Shown: piece after piece, positions 3,058-21,479 of the stretch | Numbering within the stretch: position 1 is the first letter of the stretch | How the letters are laid out: each line of letters starts with the position of its first letter | IMG/VR virus record: IMGVR_UViG_3300049042_000232 | Span: 1-25,254 of that record | Source of the DNA: a virus | Lineage: Duplodnaviria > Caudoviricetes | Reading direction: 5' to 3' (one strand) | Length of the DNA stretch: 25,254 bases | Made by a program: the position numbers and the translations under genes | Notes under the pieces: generated by a model | The model's database searches: none | What the model saw: the letters and a program-made list of their open reading frames with translations, nothing else | Told to the model about the DNA's origin: nothing

Positions 3058-3273
3058 ATGGCAACTCCCGCTTCTTTGCTGGCACAGATTGACGCAGCGA
3101 TTGAAGCACTGCTGACCGGCGGTGTTTCCTCGTACTCGATCGGCTCTCGCACGGTCACCGCACTCGACCTGTCAACGCTCATGGATCAGCGACGGCTTCT
3201 GCAGGCGGAAGTCGACCGCGAATCAGGCGGCGGGATCTTTCGGCTGGCCAAAATGCAGAGGACCAGCCGATGA
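3058..3273 (+). CDS. Head completion protein (gpW-like)
   Basis: 71 aa, helix-SYSIGSRTVT-helix pattern, ATGA overlap with portal; lambda A-W-B synteny. Confidence 0.8.
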   Translation: MATPASLLAQIDAAIEALLTGGVSSYSIGSRTVTALDLSTLMDQRRLLQAEVDRESGGGIFRLAKMQRTSR

Positions 3274-5858
3274 TCGGATCCACGATTGACCGGCTTGTCG
3301 GGCTGTTCTCACCTGCGGCTGCAGTGCGTCGAACGCAGCAGCGGCGAACGCTTGAGCGGATGTACCAGGGAGCCGAAGCAAATCGGCTCACCAACAATAA
3401 GAAGCCAAAGAACCAATCCGCTGACAGCGAGTTGCTCGGCCCATTCGGGGCTGATGCTCTGCGTGCGTGGTCCCGTGCATTGGTGCGAGACAACGCCTAC
3501 GCATGGGGCGTCGTTGACACAATCGTCAGCTCTGTTGTCGGCAGCGGAATCACCGCACAGAGTCAGGTGGAAACGCCTGAGGGAACTGACATTGAGGACG
3601 TCAACGAACTCCGAGACAAGGTGTGGTCGGAGTGGTGCGAAGTCTGCGACGTCAACGGACGTCTGAGCTTTGCTGAAATTCAGCAGCTCGCACAGCGTGA
3701 GATGGTCGAAGCCGGTGAAGTGTTGATTCACTTCGTCAATACGCCATCTGAAAAGTATCGCGGCATCTATCGCCCCGTCCCTCTGGCGATCGAACTTATT
3801 GAAGCTGATCGTCTCGCCAACGAAAAAGACACGTACAAGGTACGCAGCACCGACGGTAACCGCATCACGCGCGGCGTTGAACTCGATGACCTTGGAAAGC
3901 CGTTGGCGTACTGGATCTACCCGGAACATCCGAACGGACCATACACGCAAGGGCGACAGGAACCAGTCCGAGTCGACGCGAAAAACATCTTGCACTTGTA
4001 TCGTATGGATCGCATCGGCCAAAGCCGTGGAGTGTCGTGGTTCGCTCCCGTCATGTCATGGTTGCGGGATCTTGGCGTTTACGTCGACAACGAGATTCAG
4101 GCGTCTGCTGTGGCGTCGTGTTTTGGTGTGGCAATCAAAACCGAGGGGCGAGCCGGCACTGGTTTAATGCCGTCGACCGACAGTGAAAGCACAGATGATA
4201 ATGGAAACGGCTTTGAATATCTCGAGCCTGCAATGGTCGTCAGGCTGCGTCCTGGCGAATCCGTGGAATCGATCAATCCAGGTCGTCCGAACTCCGCGTC
4301 AGAACCGTGGATCAACCTGATGCTTCGCGGTATCAGTGTCGGCACCGGTCTCAGTTACGAAGTCGTCTCCAGAAACTACAGCGGCACCAGTTACAGCAGC
4401 AGCCGTACCAGTATGCTCGAAGACCGTCGGCGTTTCCGTCGCTGGCAGAAATACATGGTGCAGCACTGCTGTCAGCCAATCTGGGATCGTTTTTGCGAGC
4501 AAGCTGCAACTGCCGGCGTTGATGGTTTCCCGTCAATGTCCGAAGTTCTCGACGATCGCAGGGCTGCAACAGCAGTCGAGTGGCAGACTCCTGCGTGGGA
4601 GTGGGTCGACCCACAAAGCGAACAAGCTGCGTCTGATGCTGCTCTGACATCATTTCAGAGTACGTATCAGGATGAACTTGGCCAGCGTGGAAAGAACTGG
4701 CGGAACGTGTTTTACCAGCGGGCCAAAGAAGAAAAGCTCAAGCGGTCTCTGGGCCTCGTTACTGCTGATATGGCAAATGTGGAAGCGGCACAGGCCGAAG
4801 CTCAACAGATGGCGGCGACAGGTGCTGCAGCGTCTGGGGATACCACAGCGCAGCAACCAGCCGGTGAAATGTCTGACATGAGCCGCATGCAGTGGAGTAG
4901 AAATCGAAAAGCTATTGAAGACATCCTTGCCGAACTAATCGCAGGCACTGCCAGCGAGACGAAGGCTCGAGTGTTTTTGCAAACGTTAGGGCTCACAGAA
5001 GCCACTGCTTCGGCACTGATTACTGATGCGATGGATGGAACCGTTGACACGGATCTGAGCCAGGAGCCAGCAACGGAAACTGTGCAACGTTCCGGAAAAT
5101 GGGTTTCGACAGAAGATGGCTCGTCATTGTACATAGAAGACGGAGTAGCCAAGACAGGCCCAAAGGGAAAAGAAATCGAAGACGGGAAAGACGGCCCGAA
5201 GCCTGAGGGGGCTGCGACGGAAAAGGCATCCAGTAAAAAAACGGAGGATCGTAGATTCCCCGGACGTCCTAAGGTTGGTGAAGTAGTCAATAAGGTAAAA
5301 ACCGACGTCGGTGTGGTTTCTGTTGTTGTATCAAAAGCAGAAGATAGTGTTGTCGATTTCGGTGATAAGGCAGGGCAGGTCATAGACGACGCTGTGCAGA
5401 TGCAAATCAAAATCGGAAACGAGGTTATCGCTGAAACGAAAGTCGGAACGACTGCAGAAGCAGAGCGGCGAGCCGACAAGCTTTTGGCAAAAATCACCGA
5501 AAACGCTAGTAAAGTCGGCAAGACGGCGGATGTTGATTCAGTGACGATTGACGACAAAGAAATAACGATTGAGGTTACGCACGACGGCTATGGTGGCTAT
5601 CACGGACATTTAACAACTACCAGTGCCTCTGGTGATGAACAGTATTTCAGCAAAAACGGGTTAACGCCGATAGAGCCAGATTTCGGGTCAAATCCTTCTC
5701 GCGGTGAATTCAAATCACCAGAGCAAGCAAAACGAATTCTCAATAAACGAGCCGAAAAATTTGCAAAAGCAGTAAATGCGAATGACGCAGAAATCGCAGC
5801 TATTGACGCTGAACGATTGAAAAACGCAGGTGATTCGGAATCAGACAATGAGTCGTAA
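3270..5858 (+). CDS. Portal protein, lambda family, with ~350 aa C-terminal extension
   Basis: Motifs LRAWSRALVRDNAYA, IELIEADRL, RIGQSRGVSWFAPV, SYSSSRTSMLE, WEWVDP in the first ~500 aa; ORF runs uninterrupted to 862 aa. Confidence 0.93.
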   Translation: MIGSTIDRLVGLFSPAAAVRRTQQRRTLERMYQGAEANRLTNNKKPKNQSADSELLGPFGADALRAWSRALVRDNAYAWGVVDTIVSSVVGSGITAQSQVETPEGTDIEDVNELRDKVWSEWCEVCDVNGRLSFAEIQQLAQREMVEAGEVLIHFVNTPSEKYRGIYRPVPLAIELIEADRLANEKDTYKVRSTDGNRITRGVELDDLGKPLAYWIYPEHPNGPYTQGRQEPVRVDAKNILHLYRMDRIGQSRGVSWFAPVMSWLRDLGVYVDNEIQASAVASCFGVAIKTEGRAGTGLMPSTDSESTDDNGNGFEYLEPAMVVRLRPGESVESINPGRPNSASEPWINLMLRGISVGTGLSYEVVSRNYSGTSYSSSRTSMLEDRRRFRRWQKYMVQHCCQPIWDRFCEQAATAGVDGFPSMSEVLDDRRAATAVEWQTPAWEWVDPQSEQAASDAALTSFQSTYQDELGQRGKNWRNVFYQRAKEEKLKRSLGLVTADMANVEAAQAEAQQMAATGAAASGDTTAQQPAGEMSDMSRMQWSRNRKAIEDILAELIAGTASETKARVFLQTLGLTEATASALITDAMDGTVDTDLSQEPATETVQRSGKWVSTEDGSSLYIEDGVAKTGPKGKEIEDGKDGPKPEGAATEKASSKKTEDRRFPGRPKVGEVVNKVKTDVGVVSVVVSKAEDSVVDFGDKAGQVIDDAVQMQIKIGNEVIAETKVGTTAEAERRADKLLAKITENASKVGKTADVDSVTIDDKEITIEVTHDGYGGYHGHLTTTSASGDEQYFSKNGLTPIEPDFGSNPSRGEFKSPEQAKRILNKRAEKFAKAVNANDAEIAAIDAERLKNAGDSESDNES

Positions 5859-8156: not shown

Positions 8157-8807
8157 ATGGCTGGTATTCAGGATTTTCAGGAATGGTCTGATGACTTCAA
8201 TGGTGCTGTAGCAACACTGCCAACGTCGGCAGATCCAGCGTCGCCATGGCTCGTTGACGACACCTCTTCGTCAGGCACTCCGACGTACACGAAGGGCACC
8301 AGTGAAGCCGTTTTGACACTGTCGTCTACGACGGAAGTGAACAACGTCTGCCTGCATTTCAACGACGCTCTCGACTTCGATATTGATTCCATCATCCGAA
8401 TGGAATTCCGAGCAAAGGTAACAGCAACACTCGACAGCGCAACTACGGTCGTGATGGGTCTTGGCTCTGCTCGTGCCGATGATCCGGATGCAGTCGCAGC
8501 CAATGCGTTTTTCAAGCTCGCCGGCAGTAACGTCGTTGTGGTCGAAACTGACGACGGCACGACTGACAACGATGATAACGCCACCGGTGTTTCACTCAGT
8601 TCGACATACAAGCGTTTCGTGATTGATTTCAGCGGCGGCAAATCAGACGTCAAGTTTTACATCGACGGCGTGAAGGTCGGGACTGAAACATTCACGATGT
8701 CAGAATATTCCTCTGGGCTGCAGCCGATCTTCCAGATTCAGAAGACCAGCGACAGCAACACGGATGCACTGACAATCGATTATGTGAAGGTTGTTTCCCG
8801 TCGATGA
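8157..8807 (+). CDS. Beta-rich virion protein, putative capsid decoration (lectin-like fold suspected)
   Basis: GAAAGGT RBS; acidic S/T/D-rich 216 aa with N-terminal DDF and C-terminal LTIDYVKV; directly after the capsid gene. Confidence 0.5.
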   Translation: MAGIQDFQEWSDDFNGAVATLPTSADPASPWLVDDTSSSGTPTYTKGTSEAVLTLSSTTEVNNVCLHFNDALDFDIDSIIRMEFRAKVTATLDSATTVVMGLGSARADDPDAVAANAFFKLAGSNVVVVETDDGTTDNDDNATGVSLSSTYKRFVIDFSGGKSDVKFYIDGVKVGTETFTMSEYSSGLQPIFQIQKTSDSNTDALTIDYVKVVSRR

Positions 8808-15285: not shown

Positions 15286-15293
15286 GGTGAGCG

Positions 15294-16511
15294 ATGGCGT
15301 TTAAGGTCTGCTGTAGTTGTGGCCTGGCAATATTTCGTAGACCCGCTGTTGACGGTACGGCATTAAATAGTGATACCAGCGTGTCAGGATACGACCACAC
15401 ATGGACAGCTGGTGCGTCCGGACTACCGTTCGTTGATGTTCAGTTATACGGCGCGAGTGTCACGAGTTCTGATTTATACTCTTCATCCGGTGGTTTCTTT
15501 TACGAACTGAAAACAAAGCCGTTCAGATGGTCGTTTGGCGGATATGCCGGCGAACATTTATACGTGTCGGATGTGTGCCATCGGTATCACGCTCAAAACA
15601 GTTCTATAGGCCCTACAACATCGGGGCATTTCAACGAAATCAAAGTCAAAGAGATTCGTGTTGTGCCTCCTGCTGCCGCGCTTGCTGGGACTGGTGGAAC
15701 ATTGCAGTTGGCTCAAATCGCTTATGCTAGGGTATGGGTTGATTCTGTTGACGTCACTGGAATTGTATCGGTATTTGAATCGATTCCAACATCGATGTCC
15801 GACCTATTACAAATGCTTGTGATTCCGCTCGGTAGTGAAATTCTTATGAGCGGGTTGAGTATCGATATCGATTTTTGGTTTTTGGTACGCACTCGCTTTG
15901 CGTCAGCAATAACGTCTGGATCTCAGCAGTTGATGAGTGTGTCCACGACAGCATATCCGCACAACGGGACCAATGTTCTCGGAATGCTGTATGTCCAACG
16001 AACAGCCGGAACACATCGCACAATCACATGCGCATTTGATCGCCAAGGCCCAGGCGGTACAACTACCCTGACTTTGTCTCCTCAAAGTGGATGGAGTTAC
16101 ACAAAAACGAAAACACATGTGGAAATGGTGCACACTTCCAGCGGAGACAAAATAAGCTGGTACTACTCCGAGGAGGTCCCGTATTTGCTGGTGTATCGTG
16201 TCGCCGCCACAAACAAGCCTTCTAGCGCATATCCTCCGACGTGTAAATACGTTCCACAGGGTGGAGCAACCTTCAACACACTGTGGAAGCATTCCGTAAC
16301 CGGCACCATATCTCCGATCTGGGAAAACACGGCGAGGGATATGTGGGATCCATCCGTCTCAGCAGTGTTTGTCAATGAATCGCGTGCAACGACTGGTGCA
16401 AACACAAGGTTGCATAACTGGTTTTACCCATATACGGCGGCATTTGGTGGCGCTAACGAGAACTCAGACACTTATGAGGATTTCCCGATAGAAATCACCG
16501 TCACAACCTGA
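15294..16511 (+). CDS. Putative receptor-binding/tail fibre protein
   Basis: GAGGTG RBS; N-terminal CCSC; S/T/G/aromatic-rich; last gene of the tail block; more A/T-ending codons by eye. Confidence 0.45.
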   Translation: MAFKVCCSCGLAIFRRPAVDGTALNSDTSVSGYDHTWTAGASGLPFVDVQLYGASVTSSDLYSSSGGFFYELKTKPFRWSFGGYAGEHLYVSDVCHRYHAQNSSIGPTTSGHFNEIKVKEIRVVPPAAALAGTGGTLQLAQIAYARVWVDSVDVTGIVSVFESIPTSMSDLLQMLVIPLGSEILMSGLSIDIDFWFLVRTRFASAITSGSQQLMSVSTTAYPHNGTNVLGMLYVQRTAGTHRTITCAFDRQGPGGTTTLTLSPQSGWSYTKTKTHVEMVHTSSGDKISWYYSEEVPYLLVYRVAATNKPSSAYPPTCKYVPQGGATFNTLWKHSVTGTISPIWENTARDMWDPSVSAVFVNESRATTGANTRLHNWFYPYTAAFGGANENSDTYEDFPIEITVTT

Positions 16512-16573
16512 AAGCATTAGGACCGTCATTGATTACGCCCTGGCACCATGCAGGCACCAACGCAGCACCGGGA

Positions 16574-16600
16574 GAGCCGGCGGGGAAACCCGCTCGGCTC
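16574..16600. terminator. GC-rich hairpin between the convergent late operon and cassette array
   Basis: GAGCCGGCGGG-GAAA-CCCGCTCGGCTC; weak U tract (GCTGTGTTT) on +. Confidence 0.6.
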
Positions 16601-16653
16601 GCTGTGTTTATCGGGATATCACTTTGCGCGTGATATTTCGTATCACGGAGCGA

Positions 16654-16673
16654 CGGATAATTCAAAGTTAGCC
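16654..16673 (+). other. attI-like recombination site
   Basis: CGGATAA-TTCAAA-GTTAGCC has the same TAA-6 bp-GTT spacing as the attI1 simple site (GCCCTAA-AACAAA-GTT); GTTAGCCC complements GGGCTAAC of the first attC; no attC hairpin upstream. Confidence 0.6.
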
Positions 16674-17363
16674 CTCAGAATCAAAACACAAAACACCCTG
16701 CCGCAACCGCTCGACTGCGATCCGGCAATACTCCACATTGATCTCGATCCCGACCGCCCGAAGCCCAAGCAGTTTAGCGGCAACCAGCGTCGTGCCGCTC
16801 CCCATGAACGGGTCCAACACACTCTTTGCTTCAGGAACCAATCCGATGCACCACTTCATCAGTACCAACGGTTTTTGTGTCGGGTGAACCTTCCGTGGCT
16901 GCCCTCCGTTGTATTCCTCAATTCGCCCCATTCGAAACATCCGGGTTGGTAGTTCGATCGTTGTCCACGCCATTTCAAAATGTCCGCTCGTGTGCTCCTG
17001 CTTCTTGTCCCAGGCCAACCAGCATCGTACCGGCGGCAATGCGTAGTAGTTTCCGCCCCAAATGACTGATGTGTTCGCTGTGTCCACCGCTTGGTCAATT
17101 AACATCTGCGGCACAGTCGTCTTGTCCCATGTGTTTGCCTTGCCCATCATGCGCCCCCACAACGGGTCGCTCTCAGAAGACACAATCTTGTTGCCCAGCC
17201 CATACGGTGGGTCGGTCAGCAGTAGGTCAAACTTCCCCAGCGTCGGCAGCACGTCCCGGCAGTCGGCGTTGTAAATCGTAATCCCGTCCCGGTCGTAAAA
17301 GGGAACAATCGGGCTAACAATGGGTTCAACCGGAGTTGCGGTCATGCCGTTTTCTGCTTTCAT
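16668..17363 (-). CDS. Cassette 1: beta-class DNA methyltransferase (DPPY, likely N6-adenine)
   Basis: DLLLTDPPYG, HPTQKP, VLDPFMGSGTT; start inside attC1, stop in the GTTA core. Confidence 0.92.
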   Translation of the reverse strand: MKAENGMTATPVEPIVSPIVPFYDRDGITIYNADCRDVLPTLGKFDLLLTDPPYGLGNKIVSSESDPLWGRMMGKANTWDKTTVPQMLIDQAVDTANTSVIWGGNYYALPPVRCWLAWDKKQEHTSGHFEMAWTTIELPTRMFRMGRIEEYNGGQPRKVHPTQKPLVLMKWCIGLVPEAKSVLDPFMGSGTTLVAAKLLGLRAVGIEINVEYCRIAVERLRQGVLCFDSEG

Positions 17364-17402
17364 AGTCGTTCGTCCGCAACCCGGTTAACCCAAGCGTTCG
17401 CT
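17312..17402 (+). repeat. attC site 1 (91 bp)
   Basis: GGCTAAC-AATGG-GTTCAACC...GGTTAAC-CCAAGC-GTTCGCT; unpaired C and A on the top strand. Confidence 0.92.
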
Positions 17403-17404
17403 GC

Positions 17405-17728
17405 CTACTGGAACCCTGCTTCTTTGATCGAATCGATTGTCTCTTGCACGTGCTCACTAAACTCCCGATCGTCGGTACACAAGACGCAAGGCAAGTCCTC
17501 TGGCACATGATGACCAACTGAACCAACCTCGAAATCATCGTTGTGCCAGATCCAAATAGTTTCTCCAATACTAGGCACCCTTGCGAACCGGCAGACTTTC
17601 GTGAATAACTGGAACCCTCGCCTATGTTCACGCTTGAATCTCAGTGTCACCATCACTGGCAGTGAACAATGCGATGAACCCGAGTTCGCTACGTCTGCCG
17701 CTTCGGTTGTGTTTGCCGCTTCAGTCAC
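17405..17728 (-). CDS. Cassette 2: hypothetical protein
   Basis: GTG 17728 after AAGGGG RBS in the attC2 loop; contains RVPSIGETIWI. Confidence 0.7.
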   Translation of the reverse strand: MTEAANTTEAADVANSGSSHCSLPVMVTLRFKREHRRGFQLFTKVCRFARVPSIGETIWIWHNDDFEVGSVGHHVPEDLPCVLCTDDREFSEHVQETIDSIKEAGFQ

Positions 17729-17792
17729 GTTTGATCCCCTTTGAAAGTTGCCCCACATTCACCGCGAACACGGGTTATCGCTGTCGTTAGCA
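17661..17792 (+). repeat. attC site 2 (132 bp)
   Basis: AGTGAAC-AATGC-GATGAACC...GGTTATC-GCTGTC-GTTAGCA. Confidence 0.85.
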
Positions 17793-17795
17793 GGA

Positions 17796-18137
17796 CTAAA
17801 CCAGCTCGATCTGTGTGTAGCCGATTCGCCTTGCCCATTTGCGATCACCAACCATGATGTCGCCACTTCCGCCCCATATTTCCGTGTCGATCATTCCGGC
17901 CAACGCAGCCGGATCAACTGTCGGAGGGTTCACTATCGTCAACACCGATTGTCCAGCCGCGCCACCTCGCTCACGGGGTTCCAGTTTCAACCGCACCTTC
18001 GGCTTGTCCTTCGTCGCACCGTGGCAACTGGGGCAGTCGTCCCAGCTTGACTCCGGGTCTTTACCGCCACCGTTGCAGGTATCGCAATGCTCTGGGGCAA
18101 TCACTGTCACCGCTGCTATTCGTGCATCAATACTCAT
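17796..18137 (-). CDS. Cassette 3: CxxCxGxG zinc-finger protein
   Basis: CDTCNGGG...CPSCHG; fills the cassette between attC2 and attC3. Confidence 0.75.
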   Translation of the reverse strand: MSIDARIAAVTVIAPEHCDTCNGGGKDPESSWDDCPSCHGATKDKPKVRLKLEPRERGGAAGQSVLTIVNPPTVDPAALAGMIDTEIWGGSGDIMVGDRKWARRIGYTQIELV

Positions 18138-18145
18138 ACAAAGCC

Positions 18146-18236
18146 TGCTAACAATGCGGTGAACGCGAGTTGCCGTTCACGCTGGTTTGAAATTGAAAAT
18201 CTTTTGGCGGCAACCGCGTTACCGCACGCGTTATGC
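18146..18236 (+). repeat. attC site 3 (91 bp)
   Basis: TGCTAAC-AATGC-GGTGAACG...CGTTACC-GCACGC-GTTATGC. Confidence 0.9.
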
Positions 18237-18238
18237 TG

Positions 18239-18457
18239 CTACTTCCTGCAGGCTGTTTTTGCGGCATCAGTGGCCGCCTTGACCTTCGTTTTCTCGTAAT
18301 CATTCAACCACAGTTCATCGTCTTCGTTTGTCGATTGCCCGACACCAAATTCTTTCTTCAGCCGATTCCACGCACAGCATTCGTTGATCATCACACCGTG
18401 GTGCAGGATATATTTCCTCATCCGGATAAGATCCGCCCTGATTTCGTCTCGATCCAC
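18239..18457 (-). CDS. Cassette 4: small hypothetical protein (paralogue of cassette 7)
   Basis: AGGAG RBS and GTG start; HHG...ECCAW.RLKKEF motif shared with 19776..19961. Confidence 0.85.
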   Translation of the reverse strand: MDRDEIRADLIRMRKYILHHGVMINECCAWNRLKKEFGVGQSTNEDDELWLNDYEKTKVKAATDAAKTACRK

Positions 18458-18480
18458 GTTGAACTCCTATGGTCCGCACC

Positions 18481-18570
18481 AGCGAACAATGCGGTCAACC
18501 GGAGCCCGCTACTTGCTCGCTTGAAAATTGAAAATCGTTTCAGCGGTCCCGGTTACCGCTGGCGTTACTT
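18481..18570 (+). repeat. attC site 4 (90 bp)
   Basis: AGCGAAC-AATGC-GGTCAACC...GGTTACC-GCTGGC-GTTACTT. Confidence 0.88.
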
Positions 18571-18783
18571 TGACTGATTGTGTTGTCGAATTGCCGCTTC
18601 GATGTGCATCAGCGTTCCGACTTGCTGCGACATCAGATCAATCTGCCTGTCCCACTGCTCTTTGACTTCCTGTCTGCCCTTGCTGTCTTTCAACTGCACA
18701 ATCACAGCCACACACACCAAAACCGTCATTGCACCGCCAATGAACGCGGCCCCACAAATAAAACTCAATATCACTGAATCCAT
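18565..18783 (-). CDS. Cassette 5: small single-pass membrane protein
   Basis: AGGAGAGG RBS; hydrophobic N-terminal ~30 aa then coiled tail; stop in the GTTA core. Confidence 0.8.
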   Translation of the reverse strand: MDSVILSFICGAAFIGGAMTVLVCVAVIVQLKDSKGRQEVKEQWDRQIDLMSQQVGTLMHIEAAIRQHNQSK

Positions 18784-18801
18784 GATCCTCTCCTAAAAGC
18801 A

Positions 18802-18892
18802 AAGTAACAACAAAATGCACATGAGCAGCGGGCGATGGTTTCTCACATGGCAACGCTGTCTGGCCGCTGCCATGTGATTTTGAGCGTTAGCC
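18802..18892 (+). repeat. attC site 5 (91 bp)
   Basis: AAGTAAC-AACAA-AATGCACA...TGTGATT-TTGAGC-GTTAGCC. Confidence 0.9.
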
Positions 18893-19726
18893 AGCATCCC
18901 CAAAGTCCAACAACTTCTGCGCGAGCCGCTTCCGAGCGATCTCGCAATACGATTCATTCACGTCGATCCCGATGAACCGACGGCCCATCAACCGAGCCAT
19001 CTTCGTTGTCGTCCCGCTCCCGTTGAACGGGTCCAACACGATGTCGCCTTCGTTGCTCCAACTCAAAATGTGGTCACGGGCCAACGCTTCGGGAAACGGG
19101 GCCGGATGGTCGCCGTTGTCATTGTCGTTGCGTGCCGAATCGCATACCCAAACATTCCACCGTTTCCCGTCCAACTGAATCGTCTTGTCGGACCTCCGCG
19201 TTATCTCGTCATTCGGTTCCCGAACAGTCACCGACGTTGTTCTGCCAGCGCTTGTGTTCCTGCGATCCATCAATGCGTTGAACGTCTCCACCTTTCCATT
19301 CGCCAGCACGAAGCAGTATTCAAAGACGTCGTGATACCGGTTCGGGAATGGCATCGAAAACGTCGTCTTCTGGAAAATCATCGTGTCATGCAACCGAAAC
19401 CCGATCTCCATGAACCGCAACGCCTGCCGGAAACTGGTTCCCGTCTCGCTGCCATTCACCGTCGCATCGGCCACAACCCACACTACAACGCCACCCGGCT
19501 TGATGACTCGCCACAACTGCTGTGCGACGCCCTCGAAGTCCCACGAATGCCCGCCGTAAACTCTGAGGGAATCGTATGGCGGCGACGTGACCACCAAGTC
19601 GATTGACGCATCAGGGAAGCCTTGCATCGTTGCCACGTTGTCACCGCAGACGATCGAATCCAAAGGCAAAGGCTGGCTAACAATGGGTTCAACCGGAGTT
19701 GCGGTCATGCCGTTTTCTGCTTTCAT
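18887..19726 (-). CDS. Cassette 6: beta-class DNA methyltransferase (SPPY, likely N4-cytosine)
   Basis: DLVVTSPPYD, HPAPFP, VLDPFNGSGTT; start inside attC6, stop in the GTTA core. Confidence 0.92.
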   Translation of the reverse strand: MKAENGMTATPVEPIVSQPLPLDSIVCGDNVATMQGFPDASIDLVVTSPPYDSLRVYGGHSWDFEGVAQQLWRVIKPGGVVVWVVADATVNGSETGTSFRQALRFMEIGFRLHDTMIFQKTTFSMPFPNRYHDVFEYCFVLANGKVETFNALMDRRNTSAGRTTSVTVREPNDEITRRSDKTIQLDGKRWNVWVCDSARNDNDNGDHPAPFPEALARDHILSWSNEGDIVLDPFNGSGTTTKMARLMGRRFIGIDVNESYCEIARKRLAQKLLDFGDAG

Positions 19727-19765
19727 AGTCTTTCGTCCGCAACCCGGTTAACCCAAGCGTTAGTT
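19675..19765 (+). repeat. attC site 6 (91 bp), near-identical to attC1
   Basis: 19675..19761 matches 17312..17398 at 86 of 87 nt. Confidence 0.92.
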
Positions 19766-19775
19766 TGACAGCCAA

Positions 19776-19961
19776 TCAAACATTGATTTTCTGACTCTGA
19801 TACCAACGCAGCCACCGCTCGTCATCCTCTTCGGTTGTCTGCCCAACGTCGAATTCTTTTTTCAACCTATCCCACGCGCAGCACTCTCCGATGCCGATTC
19901 CGTGATGAATCACGTATTTACGCATCAGAATCAGCTCTGCTTTGACCTGATCTCTGTCCAC
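19776..19961 (-). CDS. Cassette 7: small hypothetical protein (paralogue of cassette 4)
   Basis: GTG 19961 after GAGGGTG; aligns without gaps to the cassette 4 product. Confidence 0.85.
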   Translation of the reverse strand: MDRDQVKAELILMRKYVIHHGIGIGECCAWDRLKKEFDVGQTTEEDDERWLRWYQSQKINV

Positions 19962-19976
19962 GTCTTCACCCTCGCA

Positions 19977-20066
19977 AACTAACAAAGCATTCCACCGGAG
20001 TGCCGCACCATCCGTTTTCAGAAATCCACACCGGGCTGCGGCACCCGGTGAATGCCGTCGTTATTT
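19977..20066 (+). repeat. attC site 7 (90 bp)
   Basis: AACTAAC-AAAGC-ATTCCACC...GGTGAAT-GCCGTC-GTTATTT. Confidence 0.9.
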
Positions 20067-20327
20067 GCTCAGAAATTTAAACGGCTCGAAGTCATCAAGA
20101 TCGAACCATATGTTCGGCAAAAACTCGTCACTCGTGTTGTTCCAGCAGTCATCACAGATCGTTTTACCGTCCCACATTTTCAGCGTCGCTGCAGGATGGC
20201 ACGTTGGCGCGTCACCTTCGGCACAATAATCACACGCGAATAGTGCGTGCTTCCGTAGCCATTCCTCGGAACCGCAAATAACAAGGCGATCAACCGGAGC
20301 GGTATCCTCTCGTTTTTGGTTTTCCAT
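20061..20327 (-). CDS. Cassette 8: small Cys/His zinc-binding protein
   Basis: CDYC...CH...CDDC; GGAG RBS and ATG inside attC8; stop in the GTTA core. Confidence 0.8.
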   Translation of the reverse strand: MENQKREDTAPVDRLVICGSEEWLRKHALFACDYCAEGDAPTCHPAATLKMWDGKTICDDCWNNTSDEFLPNIWFDLDDFEPFKFLSK

Positions 20328-20364
20328 GTTTTACTCCCCGCCCGGTTATCGCCGGGCGTTCACC
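20276..20364 (+). repeat. attC site 8 (89 bp)
   Basis: AAATAAC-AAGGC-GATCAACC...GGTTATC-GCCGGGC-GTTCACC (7 bp L'-R' spacer). Confidence 0.85.
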
Positions 20365-20367
20365 ACA

Positions 20368-20670
20368 TCAGAAATTGACACGCTGCCACGGCTCCGCACA
20401 CTCATCAGTAGGGTCACCACGAAACACCCACAATTGAGGCGGTTCGCTGTTATCGAAAGCCAAAAAGAATCCGGACTTATCCAGCATGATCTGTTGCCTC
20501 ACCACCTGCTGAACATCACGCATCATCTGTGGGTCTGTATCCGGATCTCGAAGTATGTTGCTCCAATCAATCCCGTAACTGTCCACCATCCGCAATCGCC
20601 TGACAGCGCCGGCAAGTGGTGAACAAGGCGATGCACAGGAGCCTTCGCTGCCCTCGTTTTTGACTTCCAT
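20368..20670 (-). CDS. Cassette 9: hypothetical protein
   Basis: GAGGAG RBS and ATG inside attC9. Confidence 0.75.
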   Translation of the reverse strand: MEVKNEGSEGSCASPCSPLAGAVRRLRMVDSYGIDWSNILRDPDTDPQMMRDVQQVVRQQIMLDKSGFFLAFDNSEPPQLWVFRGDPTDECAEPWQRVNF

Positions 20671-20708
20671 TTTTTACTCCTCAGGCCCTGTGATCTTGGT
20701 CGTTATGC
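20618..20708 (+). repeat. attC site 9 (91 bp)
   Basis: GGTGAAC-AAGGC-GATGCACA...TGTGATC-TTGGTC-GTTATGC. Confidence 0.85.
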
Positions 20709-20731
20709 CTGATGCCTTGTATTCCATCGCT

Positions 20732-20878
20732 TCAAAAGCTTTGCCTCTGCCTCTTCACGGTCTTGAGAATGCAGTCAGTGCGGACGTAAATCGTCTGCAA
20801 AATGCGGCGACGATTTCCGGATTCGTAGCAGTCGACTCGCCAGATGTTGCCGGTGGCGGCGAGCAGTGGTGATGGCAT
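20732..20878 (-). CDS. Small non-cassette leader gene of the leftward operon (48 aa)
   Basis: GGAG RBS before ATG 20878; lies between the leftward promoter and attC9. Confidence 0.5.
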   Translation of the reverse strand: MPSPLLAATGNIWRVDCYESGNRRRILQTIYVRTDCILKTVKRQRQSF

Positions 20879-20911
20879 GAAAAAACTCCGATGAGGGGGA
20901 TGTGATCGCAT

Positions 20912-20940
20912 CTTTTTACAGAATTGTAAACTGTTGTCAA
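20912..20940 (-). promoter_or_regulatory. Leftward promoter with overlapping palindromic operator
   Basis: Minus strand TTGACA-ACAG-TTTACA-ATTC-TGTAAA; perfect -35, weak -10. Confidence 0.65.
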
Positions 20941-20983
20941 TTGTGTTTGTTGATTTTTGTTTTCTGTGCTGTAAGCTTTTATC

Positions 20984-21178
20984 ATGACGACACCATTTTT
21001 TTATACAGCAAAATCTGCTGCTCACGTTCTCGGCTGCACTGACGCCCGTGTGCGTCAGATTTTAATCGCTGCAGAAGGGTCGATCGGTCGCAAGGCTCTC
21101 GGTGGTTCTGCGTGGATTTTGAATTCTGCAGATCTTCAGCGAGTGAAAAAACTTCTCCGAAAATCAAAAAAACAATAA
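20984..21178 (+). CDS. Small winged-HTH DNA-binding protein (Xis/MerR-like)
   Basis: YTAKSAAHVLGCTDARVRQIL...GRKALGGSAWIL pattern; basic C-terminus. Confidence 0.75.
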   Translation: MTTPFFYTAKSAAHVLGCTDARVRQILIAAEGSIGRKALGGSAWILNSADLQRVKKLLRKSKKQ

Positions 21179-21186
21179 ACCGGATG

Positions 21187-21215
21187 TTGACAGTTTTTTA
21201 CAGTGTTGTAAATAT
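21187..21215 (+). promoter_or_regulatory. Rightward promoter with overlapping palindromic operator
   Basis: TTGACA-GTTT-TTTACA-GTGT-TGTAAATAT; same architecture as the leftward site. Confidence 0.7.
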
Positions 21216-21255
21216 CTGTTTAAGTGTTTTTGTTTCGGTAACGTGGAGAAAAACA

Positions 21256-21387
21256 ATGAGCTTACTCTTTCGTCTCTTTCGAGACGCTTGGCGCTGCGGT
21301 GCATGCGGTGCCGTCAATCCGCAGTCCTTTGGTCCTGCGAGCGTTTGCGTTTGCGGATGCTACCTTCGAAACGGAGGTGCAAAATGA
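21256..21387 (+). CDS. Tiny zinc-ribbon protein (43 aa)
   Basis: GGAG RBS; WRCGACGAVN...CVCG. Confidence 0.6.
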   Translation: MSLLFRLFRDAWRCGACGAVNPQSFGPASVCVCGCYLRNGGAK

Positions 21388-21479
21388 TGAGTGAACTTCT
21401 CCCAATCGCCTGTTCGGTCTTGGCTGGCATTCTGGTCTGGAACATCACCGCCACGAATCTTAGCGATCGCAACTGGTAA
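21384..21479 (+). CDS. Tiny single-TM peptide (31 aa)
   Basis: GGAGGT RBS, ATGA coupling, hydrophobic LLPIACSVLAGILVW. Confidence 0.55.
   Translation: MMSELLPIACSVLAGILVWNITATNLSDRNW

Follow-up and report, generated by a model that had tools for sequence, protein, structure and literature searches.

Reversed integron-type gene cassettes behind a conserved attI-like site in a phage genome fragment

Phages are known to carry clusters of attC sites lacking integron integrases (CALINs), which by their working definition combine two or more attC sites, spaced over a few kb, with the absence of a neighboring intI. Qi et al. (2023; PMC9892861) list 17 phage CALINs and five cassette methyltransferases and report activity of IntI1 on five of six sites; in the available part of their text, all that is remarked upon for phage P12002L is "divergent directions," which are ascribed to mosaicism. 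More generally, integrons have recently been viewed as stores of anti-phage defense genes (two preprints, available to us in part). Here we describe an array of nine attC-like sites and nine single-gene cassettes at positions 16,654–20,708 of a 25,254-base DNA, hereafter the window, that makes up the whole of virus record IMGVR_UViG_3300049042_000232 (Duplodnaviria; Caudoviricetes). As far as their published descriptions were accessible, the CALINs of phages TJE1, PH101, P12002L and Shewanella M16-3 resemble it in combining a phage attC cluster without neighboring intI with orphan DNA methyltransferases, and differ from it in having 2–4 listed sites against nine and, in TJE1, forward cassettes (PMC9892861). 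The original prediction, made from the sequence alone, had described the locus as an integrase-less, integron-like array in which all cassette genes are inverted. We consider it probable, on the evidence below, that the array is a phage-resident integron-type platform, composed of an attI-like dock and nine reversed one-gene cassettes, served by an integron integrase (IntI) in trans and transcribed from a leftward early promoter of the phage.

A scan for attC geometry identified nine sites within 3.4 kb, all on the + strand and all between the late and the early genes (sites 1–9 at 17312–17402, 17661–17792, 18146–18236, 18481–18570, 18802–18892, 19675–19765, 19977–20066, 20276–20364, and 20618–20708), and the same scan returned one match in all across 20 resampled 25-kb controls. 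A stray match at position 8525 was rejected, being isolated, inside a late gene and without a match by the covariance model introduced below. The attC box structure (R'', L'', L', R') and a bottom-strand hairpin were found throughout, with a weak fold in site 9, and the extrahelical bases, which on the bottom strand are G or C followed by T, are present in 9/9 sites. In an alignment of seven sites, from which site 2, with its 132 nt, and site 6, nearly a duplicate of site 1, were omitted, 98.3% of the cells are paired, a share reached by none of 500 shuffles, and both-side compensatory changes occur in 9 of the 17 pairs. The bottom strand folds better than shuffles in most sites, weakly so in site 2 (z −1.65). 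Our home-made covariance model R1, built from 61 chromosomal Planctomycetota sites and representing a partly circular test, recovered eight of the nine sites (47–82 bits, + strand) and nothing else in the window, missing site 2; Rfam gave no match to the sites. Scan, extrahelical bases and pairing thus bear out the nine same-strand sites, each with a single open reading frame (ORF), that had originally been noticed from the letters.

The cassettes carry a signature of former circles. The four variable bases of the left core complement the start (after GTT) of the site's own cassette in seven of nine cases, as expected of circular insertion, and match the bases after the site's own GTT, that is, the adjacent core, in none (permutation p 5e-5); cassette 2 matches at three of the four bases and cassette 4 at none. 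Each cassette contains one minus-strand ORF whose stop lies 1–17 nt from the left crossover, four of the nine stopping at a TAA within the core. A cassette ORF typically, though not obligatorily, reads toward its attC; all nine read the other way here, exactly as predicted. The recombination polarity is ordinary, since all sites share one strand, and the reversal concerns the gene within the cassette. Because of this inversion the hairpin stands at the 5' end of the gene, and ORFs 1, 2, 6, 8, and 9 likely start inside the hairpin loop and then read through its left arm; purine-rich motifs stand upstream of the starts of ORFs 2, 8, and 9, with weaker motifs at 1 and 6. The hairpin would in such cases often provide the ribosome-binding site, the start codon and the first 15–20 residues of the protein.

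The cargo, all on the minus strand, consists of two methyltransferases and seven small proteins. Cassette 1 (16668–17396) has an N6/N4 DNA methyltransferase ORF (16668–17363; PF01555, E 1.5e-21) whose first ATG lies in the loop of its attC, and cassette 6 (18887–19759) has a second (18887–19726; PF01555, E 9.1e-42), again with its first ATG in the attC; the core match is four of four in both, and the Pfam assignments uphold the methyltransferases originally proposed. Sites 1 and 6 are 93% alike (repeat D4) in front of these different genes. Cassette 2 (17397–17786) encodes 107 aa (17405–17728), with a likely GTG start and a ribosome-binding-like motif in its long attC; cassette 3 (17787–18230) encodes 113 aa (17796–18137) with a CXXCXGXG zinc-finger-like motif (PF00684, below cut-off). 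Cassette 4 (18231–18564; 72 aa, 18239–18457) is a paralog of cassette 7 (19760–20060; 61 aa, 19776–19961), with 64% protein identity, and on account of its mismatched left core it may be a chimera. Cassette 5 (18565–18886) encodes 72 aa (18565–18783) with a hydrophobic N-terminal stretch and no family match. Cassette 8 (20061–20358; 88 cysteine-rich aa, 20061–20327) and cassette 9 (20359–20702; 100 aa, 20368–20670) each have an ATG and a GGAG motif in their attC. For cassettes 4 and 9, nothing of use came from the ESM Atlas. The coding status of cassette 9 is addressed by a contig of run X1, possibly the sample of origin: of its 11 substitutions, 10 hit the third base of a codon in the minus frame; all 11 differences (20452–20536) lie within the cassette 9 gene, an allele patch inside one cassette. 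Protection of phage DNA from restriction by orphan methyltransferases is established, as cited in the accessible text of Qi et al. (PMC9892861), and the cargo as a whole likely serves early infection, for example in this way.

At its left end, which the original prediction had called attI-like, the array abuts a site that behaves as a conserved attI. The attI-like core (16655–16673, + strand) has a degenerate left box ending in AAT, a five-base spacer and the crossover G16667/TT, a geometry (AAT, five bases, GTT) that is the same as that of the Shewanella attI printed in the part of Qi et al. (PMC9892861) available to us, and it has only GTT in common with the cassettes. Upstream lies a conserved non-coding platform (16502–16654) with a G+C-rich hairpin and GATATC-like palindromes. 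It sets the array apart from the last of the rightward late genes; 155 non-coding bases, with no gene among them, separate that late gene from attI. The platform is 72–79% identical to those of five related loci (L458, L077, L078, L165, and L071; labels beginning with L or G are our own, for loci and genomes), and the homology, which extends over ~150 non-coding bases, ends 2–12 nt past the crossover G. The platform motif with a 14-nt core was found in 47 loci, many of them overlapping cuts of the same contigs and most of them fragments, with 13 different sequences after the GTT. For 9 of these 13 follower types (first-listed locus of each) the scan found a first attC, and its left core matched four of four in 9/9. 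One close relative, L085 (late gene 84% and Sak4 89% identical to those of the window), retains the core without an attC array. Matches to the core in L461/L529 and in four other places lack the platform motif and were discarded as chance or unrelated.

Comparison of relatives showed that cassettes are gained, lost and reordered at the exact junctions. Four of five pairs of shared cassettes begin and end precisely at G/TT and have different neighbors, and the fifth consists of two cassettes merged by a site missed in the scan. Loci L527 and L457, which have the same platform, show the orders B, E, new, D-like, G and A, B, C, D, E, F, G, respectively, and a 1042-nt first cassette present at attI in L457 is absent from L527, its boundary being exactly that of attI, the point at which new cassettes join the head of the array. 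Cassette 3 has a 96% identical copy in L128 and L087, and contigs of two other studies diverge 2–4 nt past its GTT. We looked for content changes with breakpoints away from the GTT cores, and the relatives changed at G/TT, in agreement with the gene-shuffling platform of the original prediction. Exchange inside the hairpins also occurs, since one shared gene has different inner stems in two phages and the near-identical sites 1 and 6 precede different genes. No joint skipping a cassette was seen in run X1, whose data are contigs, which drop rare variants. In other loci, some cassettes, those of family F3 (1421 nt; L460 and L078) and family F2 (L456/L460), contain several genes or a long non-coding part together with a small DNA-binding-like gene, and look as if blocks of an early operon had been packaged as single cassettes.

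Inversion is a phage trait. Among dereplicated cassettes of 200–1800 nt with a core match of at least three of four, oriented by their longest ORF, 92 of 147 viral cassettes were reversed, 20 forward and 35 unclear, against 23 reversed, 158 forward and 41 unclear of 222 bacterial ones; the viral cassettes stem from phages related to each other and cannot be counted as independent, and the three cassettes of a prophage, L308, were counted separately. The top strand is pyrimidine-rich in 138/147 viral versus 75/222 bacterial cassettes, and a loop ATG opens the gene in 47/147 (34 with a ribosome-binding-like motif) versus 9/222 (2 with the motif). Single reversed cassettes, such as those of toxin–antitoxin pairs, do occur in chromosomal arrays. 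Forward phage arrays exist too, for instance those of TJE1 and Virus Rctr41k, and the latter, with an IntI and forward cassettes, rules out the notion that all phage integrons are inverted. In the annotated record of Rctr41k, the locus (L512, 4680–10101) comprises six attC-like sites of ~130 nt, forward genes, and an IntI-like gene, labeled xerD, that points the same way as these genes; this virus is not among the phages tabulated in the accessible part of Qi et al. (PMC9892861).

The ties of the array to the host side lead to Planctomycetota. Genomes of Planctomycetota and Blastocatellia commonly contain the same ~90-nt attC family (80 listed of at least 138 loci), and the 14-nt attI core occurs at 13 places in 10/251 Pirellulaceae genomes versus 2 control matches; 4 of the 13 precede a forward cassette with a four-of-four core match. 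Three of these genomes (G703, with L536, L540, L541, and L542; G722, with L534; G692, with L537) have dispersed orphan attI-like platforms sharing the phage core, and one Pirellulaceae genome has four copies of the core with different followers and no IntI found there. At the cut-off of TIGR02249 (265 bits), IntI was detected in 57/201 genomes of a family sample of a Planctomycetaceae metagenome-assembled genome, and two of five core-bearing Pirellulaceae genomes checked encode IntI elsewhere. Given such genomes, the host or distant IntI originally postulated is plausible. In the mechanism that we propose, an integron integrase acting in trans, for which a planctomycete host or a phage resident in the same cell is the likely source, would insert and excise cassettes and change their order; new cassettes would enter at attI with their genes facing the docking site; and transcription would come from the leftward early promoter of the phage instead of from a cassette promoter (Pc), which at attI would read all nine genes antisense.

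As to that transcription, the array probably belongs to a leftward early operon read from its old end toward attI. The putative promoter (20913–20940, minus strand; TTGACA, 16 nt, TAAAAA) is the only TTGACA-type leftward match in the window, stands 230 nt beyond the last site and overlaps an operator-like palindrome (20915–20930). It was recognized with a looser pattern, because a strict sigma-70 consensus scan of 16400–21400 found no promoters, a Pc included; the sigma-70 consensus may not be that of the host. A similar promoter-like element lies 257 nt after the last attC of one related array (L454/L455/L073). A 48-aa ORF beyond the last attC (20732–20878, minus strand), with a GGAG motif upstream, is likely the first gene of the leftward transcript. 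On the other side of the divergent control region a small helix-turn-helix-like ORF (20984–21178, + strand; phrog_5794, E 0.0012, weak) precedes the RusA, Sak4-like and SSB genes, and operator-like palindromes at 20915–20930 and 21197–21212 flank it, each overlapping an outward TTGACA-led promoter-like element. The GC skew is positive or close to zero along the rightward genes and turns negative between ~16500 and 20500, which fits minus-strand coding across the array.

No integrase was found in the 25-kb window by family profile searches or by tblastn (best E 0.26), and intI does not adjoin attI as it does in a complete integron. The term "integrase-less" of the original prediction therefore stands for the window and cannot be proved for the phage: the record is a contig fragment, as judged from its longest relatives (43–46 kb; such relatives, with capsid proteins 73–90% identical, are many), and other phages with inverted arrays carry IntI next to attI. 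In L395, L396, L400 and the tRNA-Leu-inserted Pirellulaceae prophage L308, IntI adjoins attI and has the direction of the reversed genes, and the arrays are mostly reversed. Phage or prophage integron integrases above the cut-off were found in L394/L395 (1918–2994), L396 (6686–7660), L399, L400, L308 (4167–5219), and L067 (1444–2664); they group apart from chromosomal IntI, and several of them head reversed-cassette arrays, forming complete phage integrons. A quick tree built from 69 integrases requires three label changes for its 29 viral rows, ten of which cluster with L308 (SH-like approximate likelihood ratio test, SH-aLRT, 98); since the tree is a quick one and its sampling biased, with viral rows obtained via a viral query and bacterial rows being top scorers, we draw from it no claim as to the origin of IntI.

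These phage integrons give substance to the idea that the same cassette system is run by an IntI of the phage's own, encoded in the unsequenced part of its genome, in which case the locus would be a complete phage integron with a distant integrase. About 18–20 kb are missing relative to the relatives, G001 encodes an IntI, and the integrases that accompany reversed arrays fall together. The phage IntI genes that accompany arrays adjoin attI, however, and no gene is found at that place here; G002 (43,249 bases, CheckV 100%, without end repeats), which has the same attI and 12 sites, encodes no IntI, nor does any of the 47 platform-bearing loci, with the reservation on fragments already given. 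We therefore regard an integrase of its own as improbable, if worth keeping in mind. Somewhat less credence is due to shuffling of attC-derived repeats by homologous recombination of the phage, without IntI, even though genes for a Sak4-like annealing protein, RusA and SSB lie 1.5–3 kb away and the likeness of sites 1 and 6, the differing inner stems of one gene and the chimera-like cassette 4 indicate that crossovers inside sites do occur. Small variable early genes of T4-like and lambdoid phages are likewise swapped as units, bounded by repeats, in the leftward early region and are thought to be moved by homologous recombination between promoter or repeat elements, whereas the junctions in the window are of the attC/attI type. 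Homologous recombination leaves unexplained the match of left cores to their own cassette starts, the entry of cassettes at an attI core that has nothing but GTT in common with them, and the conserved extrahelical bases and compensatory changes.

A further candidate for the cassette enzyme is a divergent, non-IntI tyrosine recombinase, genes for which lie in the leftward operon of some members of the group (298 aa in G002, at L474 1141–2037; 315 aa in L085, at 15289–16236). These proteins score 23 bits or nothing against the IntI model, the gene is absent at the same position in the window and present in L085, whose array is empty, and an ordinary lysogeny integrase would be a better fit, so that we hold this role to be very unlikely. 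Equally hard to credit is a piece of host chromosomal integron captured once and now frozen. The attC family and the attI core are indeed those of Planctomycetota chromosomes, and capture of chromosomal integron pieces by Vibrio prophages has been published (PMC9892861, in the part available). Host arrays are forward and phage arrays reversed, though, no viral cassette body matched the bacterial loci compared beyond short stretches of ~90 nt, the length of an attC, and the arrays of relatives differ at exact junctions, the comparison of L527 with L457 largely refuting this account.

Several observations weigh against our preferred reading of a phage platform served in trans. On the side of the sites, site 9 folds no better than shuffles (z +0.74), cassette 4 lacks the circle signature, and the R1 result is partly circular because the bacterial loci behind the model were retrieved with a pattern drawn from the window; the relatedness of the viral cassettes counted for orientation has been mentioned. 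On the side of the enzyme, the fragmentary record leaves room for an IntI in its missing part; G001, with a capsid protein 78% identical, encodes an IntI at 320 bits (and has no sites by R1); and no IntI stands beside a window-type attI core in any phage or chromosomal locus scanned, there being none within 1.5 kb of the 13 chromosomal cores and no core beside the four IntI genes of two such genomes. In P12002L, the site that we assign to an inverted methyltransferase cassette is the one of six not recombined by IntI1 in the accessible data of Qi et al. (PMC9892861). On the side of the host, an extended 18-nt attI pattern had no match in 401 Planctomycetota genomes, and the same 401 yielded no close prophage, with capsid matches of 27–35% in seven. 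The promoter-like element was seen in one related array only and not in the other loci scanned.

The surroundings of the array are those of a tailed phage, in the order terminase, portal, capsid-protease, neck/tail genes up to 16511, array, divergent control region, and RusA, Sak4-like and SSB genes. The "tail gene" originally placed at the attI-like end (15294–16511) had no family match in profile searches, so that it can be called a late gene by position only. This last late gene is variable, with 405 aa here and 645 aa in L085, and one run X1 contig has a different sequence before 16503, which suggests exchange of the last late gene beside the platform. The portal ORF (3270–5858; 862 aa) extends ~300 residues beyond the part matched by portal families. 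Annotated phage records contained no similar array and only short methyltransferase matches, and G003, with a capsid protein 80% identical and terminal repeats, has neither attC sites nor integrase.

Integrons have been treated as bacterial devices, and here a group of phages keeps an attI platform of its own, with the polarity reversed and the system serving the phage. In the array, one hairpin occurs with different genes and, conversely, one gene occurs with different hairpins, and a hairpin that carries a ribosome-binding site and first codons would be fusable to new genes, making cassette genesis testable; so, too, becomes the action of IntI in trans on orphan attI sites. In addition, the array exactly delimits a large pool of small early genes from phages, which can be screened for counter-defense. 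A bolder, and in our estimation rather doubtful, extension is that planctomycete phages run a mirror-image integron economy, in which hairpins are plug-in translation starts, phage-specific lineages of IntI together with host IntI shuffle a pool of cassettes, and the reversed polarity acts as a firewall. If this were true, any gene body fused behind a hairpin would become an expressed mobile cassette and phages would be the birthplace of new cassettes; host defense cassettes arriving at a phage attI would be antisense and silent, as would phage cassettes in host integrons.

Set beside known systems, the window agrees with classical integrons in the bottom-strand hairpin, the extrahelical bases and the single attC polarity, and departs from the classical orientation rule in that, with attC polarity as usual, it is the ORF that is turned around inside its cassette, in 9/9 (Nivina et al., 2016, as far as accessible; PMC5027507). 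With the sedentary chromosomal integrons and CALINs of Planctomycetota it has in common the attC family, the strand polarity, the circle signature and, in some Pirellulaceae, the attI core, but most chromosomal cassettes there read forward and have the hairpin behind the gene, and here the gene is reversed, the hairpin comes first and neither intI nor Pc is found at the attI end (Cury et al., 2016, PMC4889954, and Ghaly et al., 2021, PMC8352920, in part). In the inverted-integrase integrons of Treponema one component is reversed as well, but that component is intI with respect to the array (Cury et al., 2016; PMC4889954, in part), whereas in the window it is each cassette gene with respect to its attC. 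Among phage CALINs, that of Shewanella M16-3 resembles the window in having its own attI, and P12002L in having minus-strand methyltransferases at the late/early boundary and, by our own check, at least one inverted cassette (PMC9892861). That cassette (L514, 29237–30059) is the gp35 methyltransferase of this Polaribacter phage; its core matches perfectly, and it sits where the lysis and early genes meet. Its possible attI end is overlapped by the second attC, the one published as "divergent." In the accessible text, Qi et al. (PMC9892861) describe no systematic inversion, group-conserved attI, reordering among relatives or hairpin-internal starts, and the available portions of PMC4889954, PMC8352920, PMC11551772 and two preprints contain nothing on inverted phage arrays; our literature searches, with subscription journals mostly outside their reach, returned no systematically inverted phage cassettes, phage attI platform or hairpin-borne starts. 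The locus behaves as an attI-bearing integron cassette array does. With nine sites in the geometry scan, eight of them recovered by our home-made model, and no neighboring intI, it falls under the working definition of CALINs given above, yet it does not amount to a complete integron and departs from the usual gene orientation throughout. Novelty, which the original prediction left unconfirmed, does not extend to attC sites or methyltransferase-bearing CALINs in phages, which the accessible part of the earlier work already reports (PMC9892861); it concerns the reversal of the genes, the attI platform and the likely gene starts inside hairpins.

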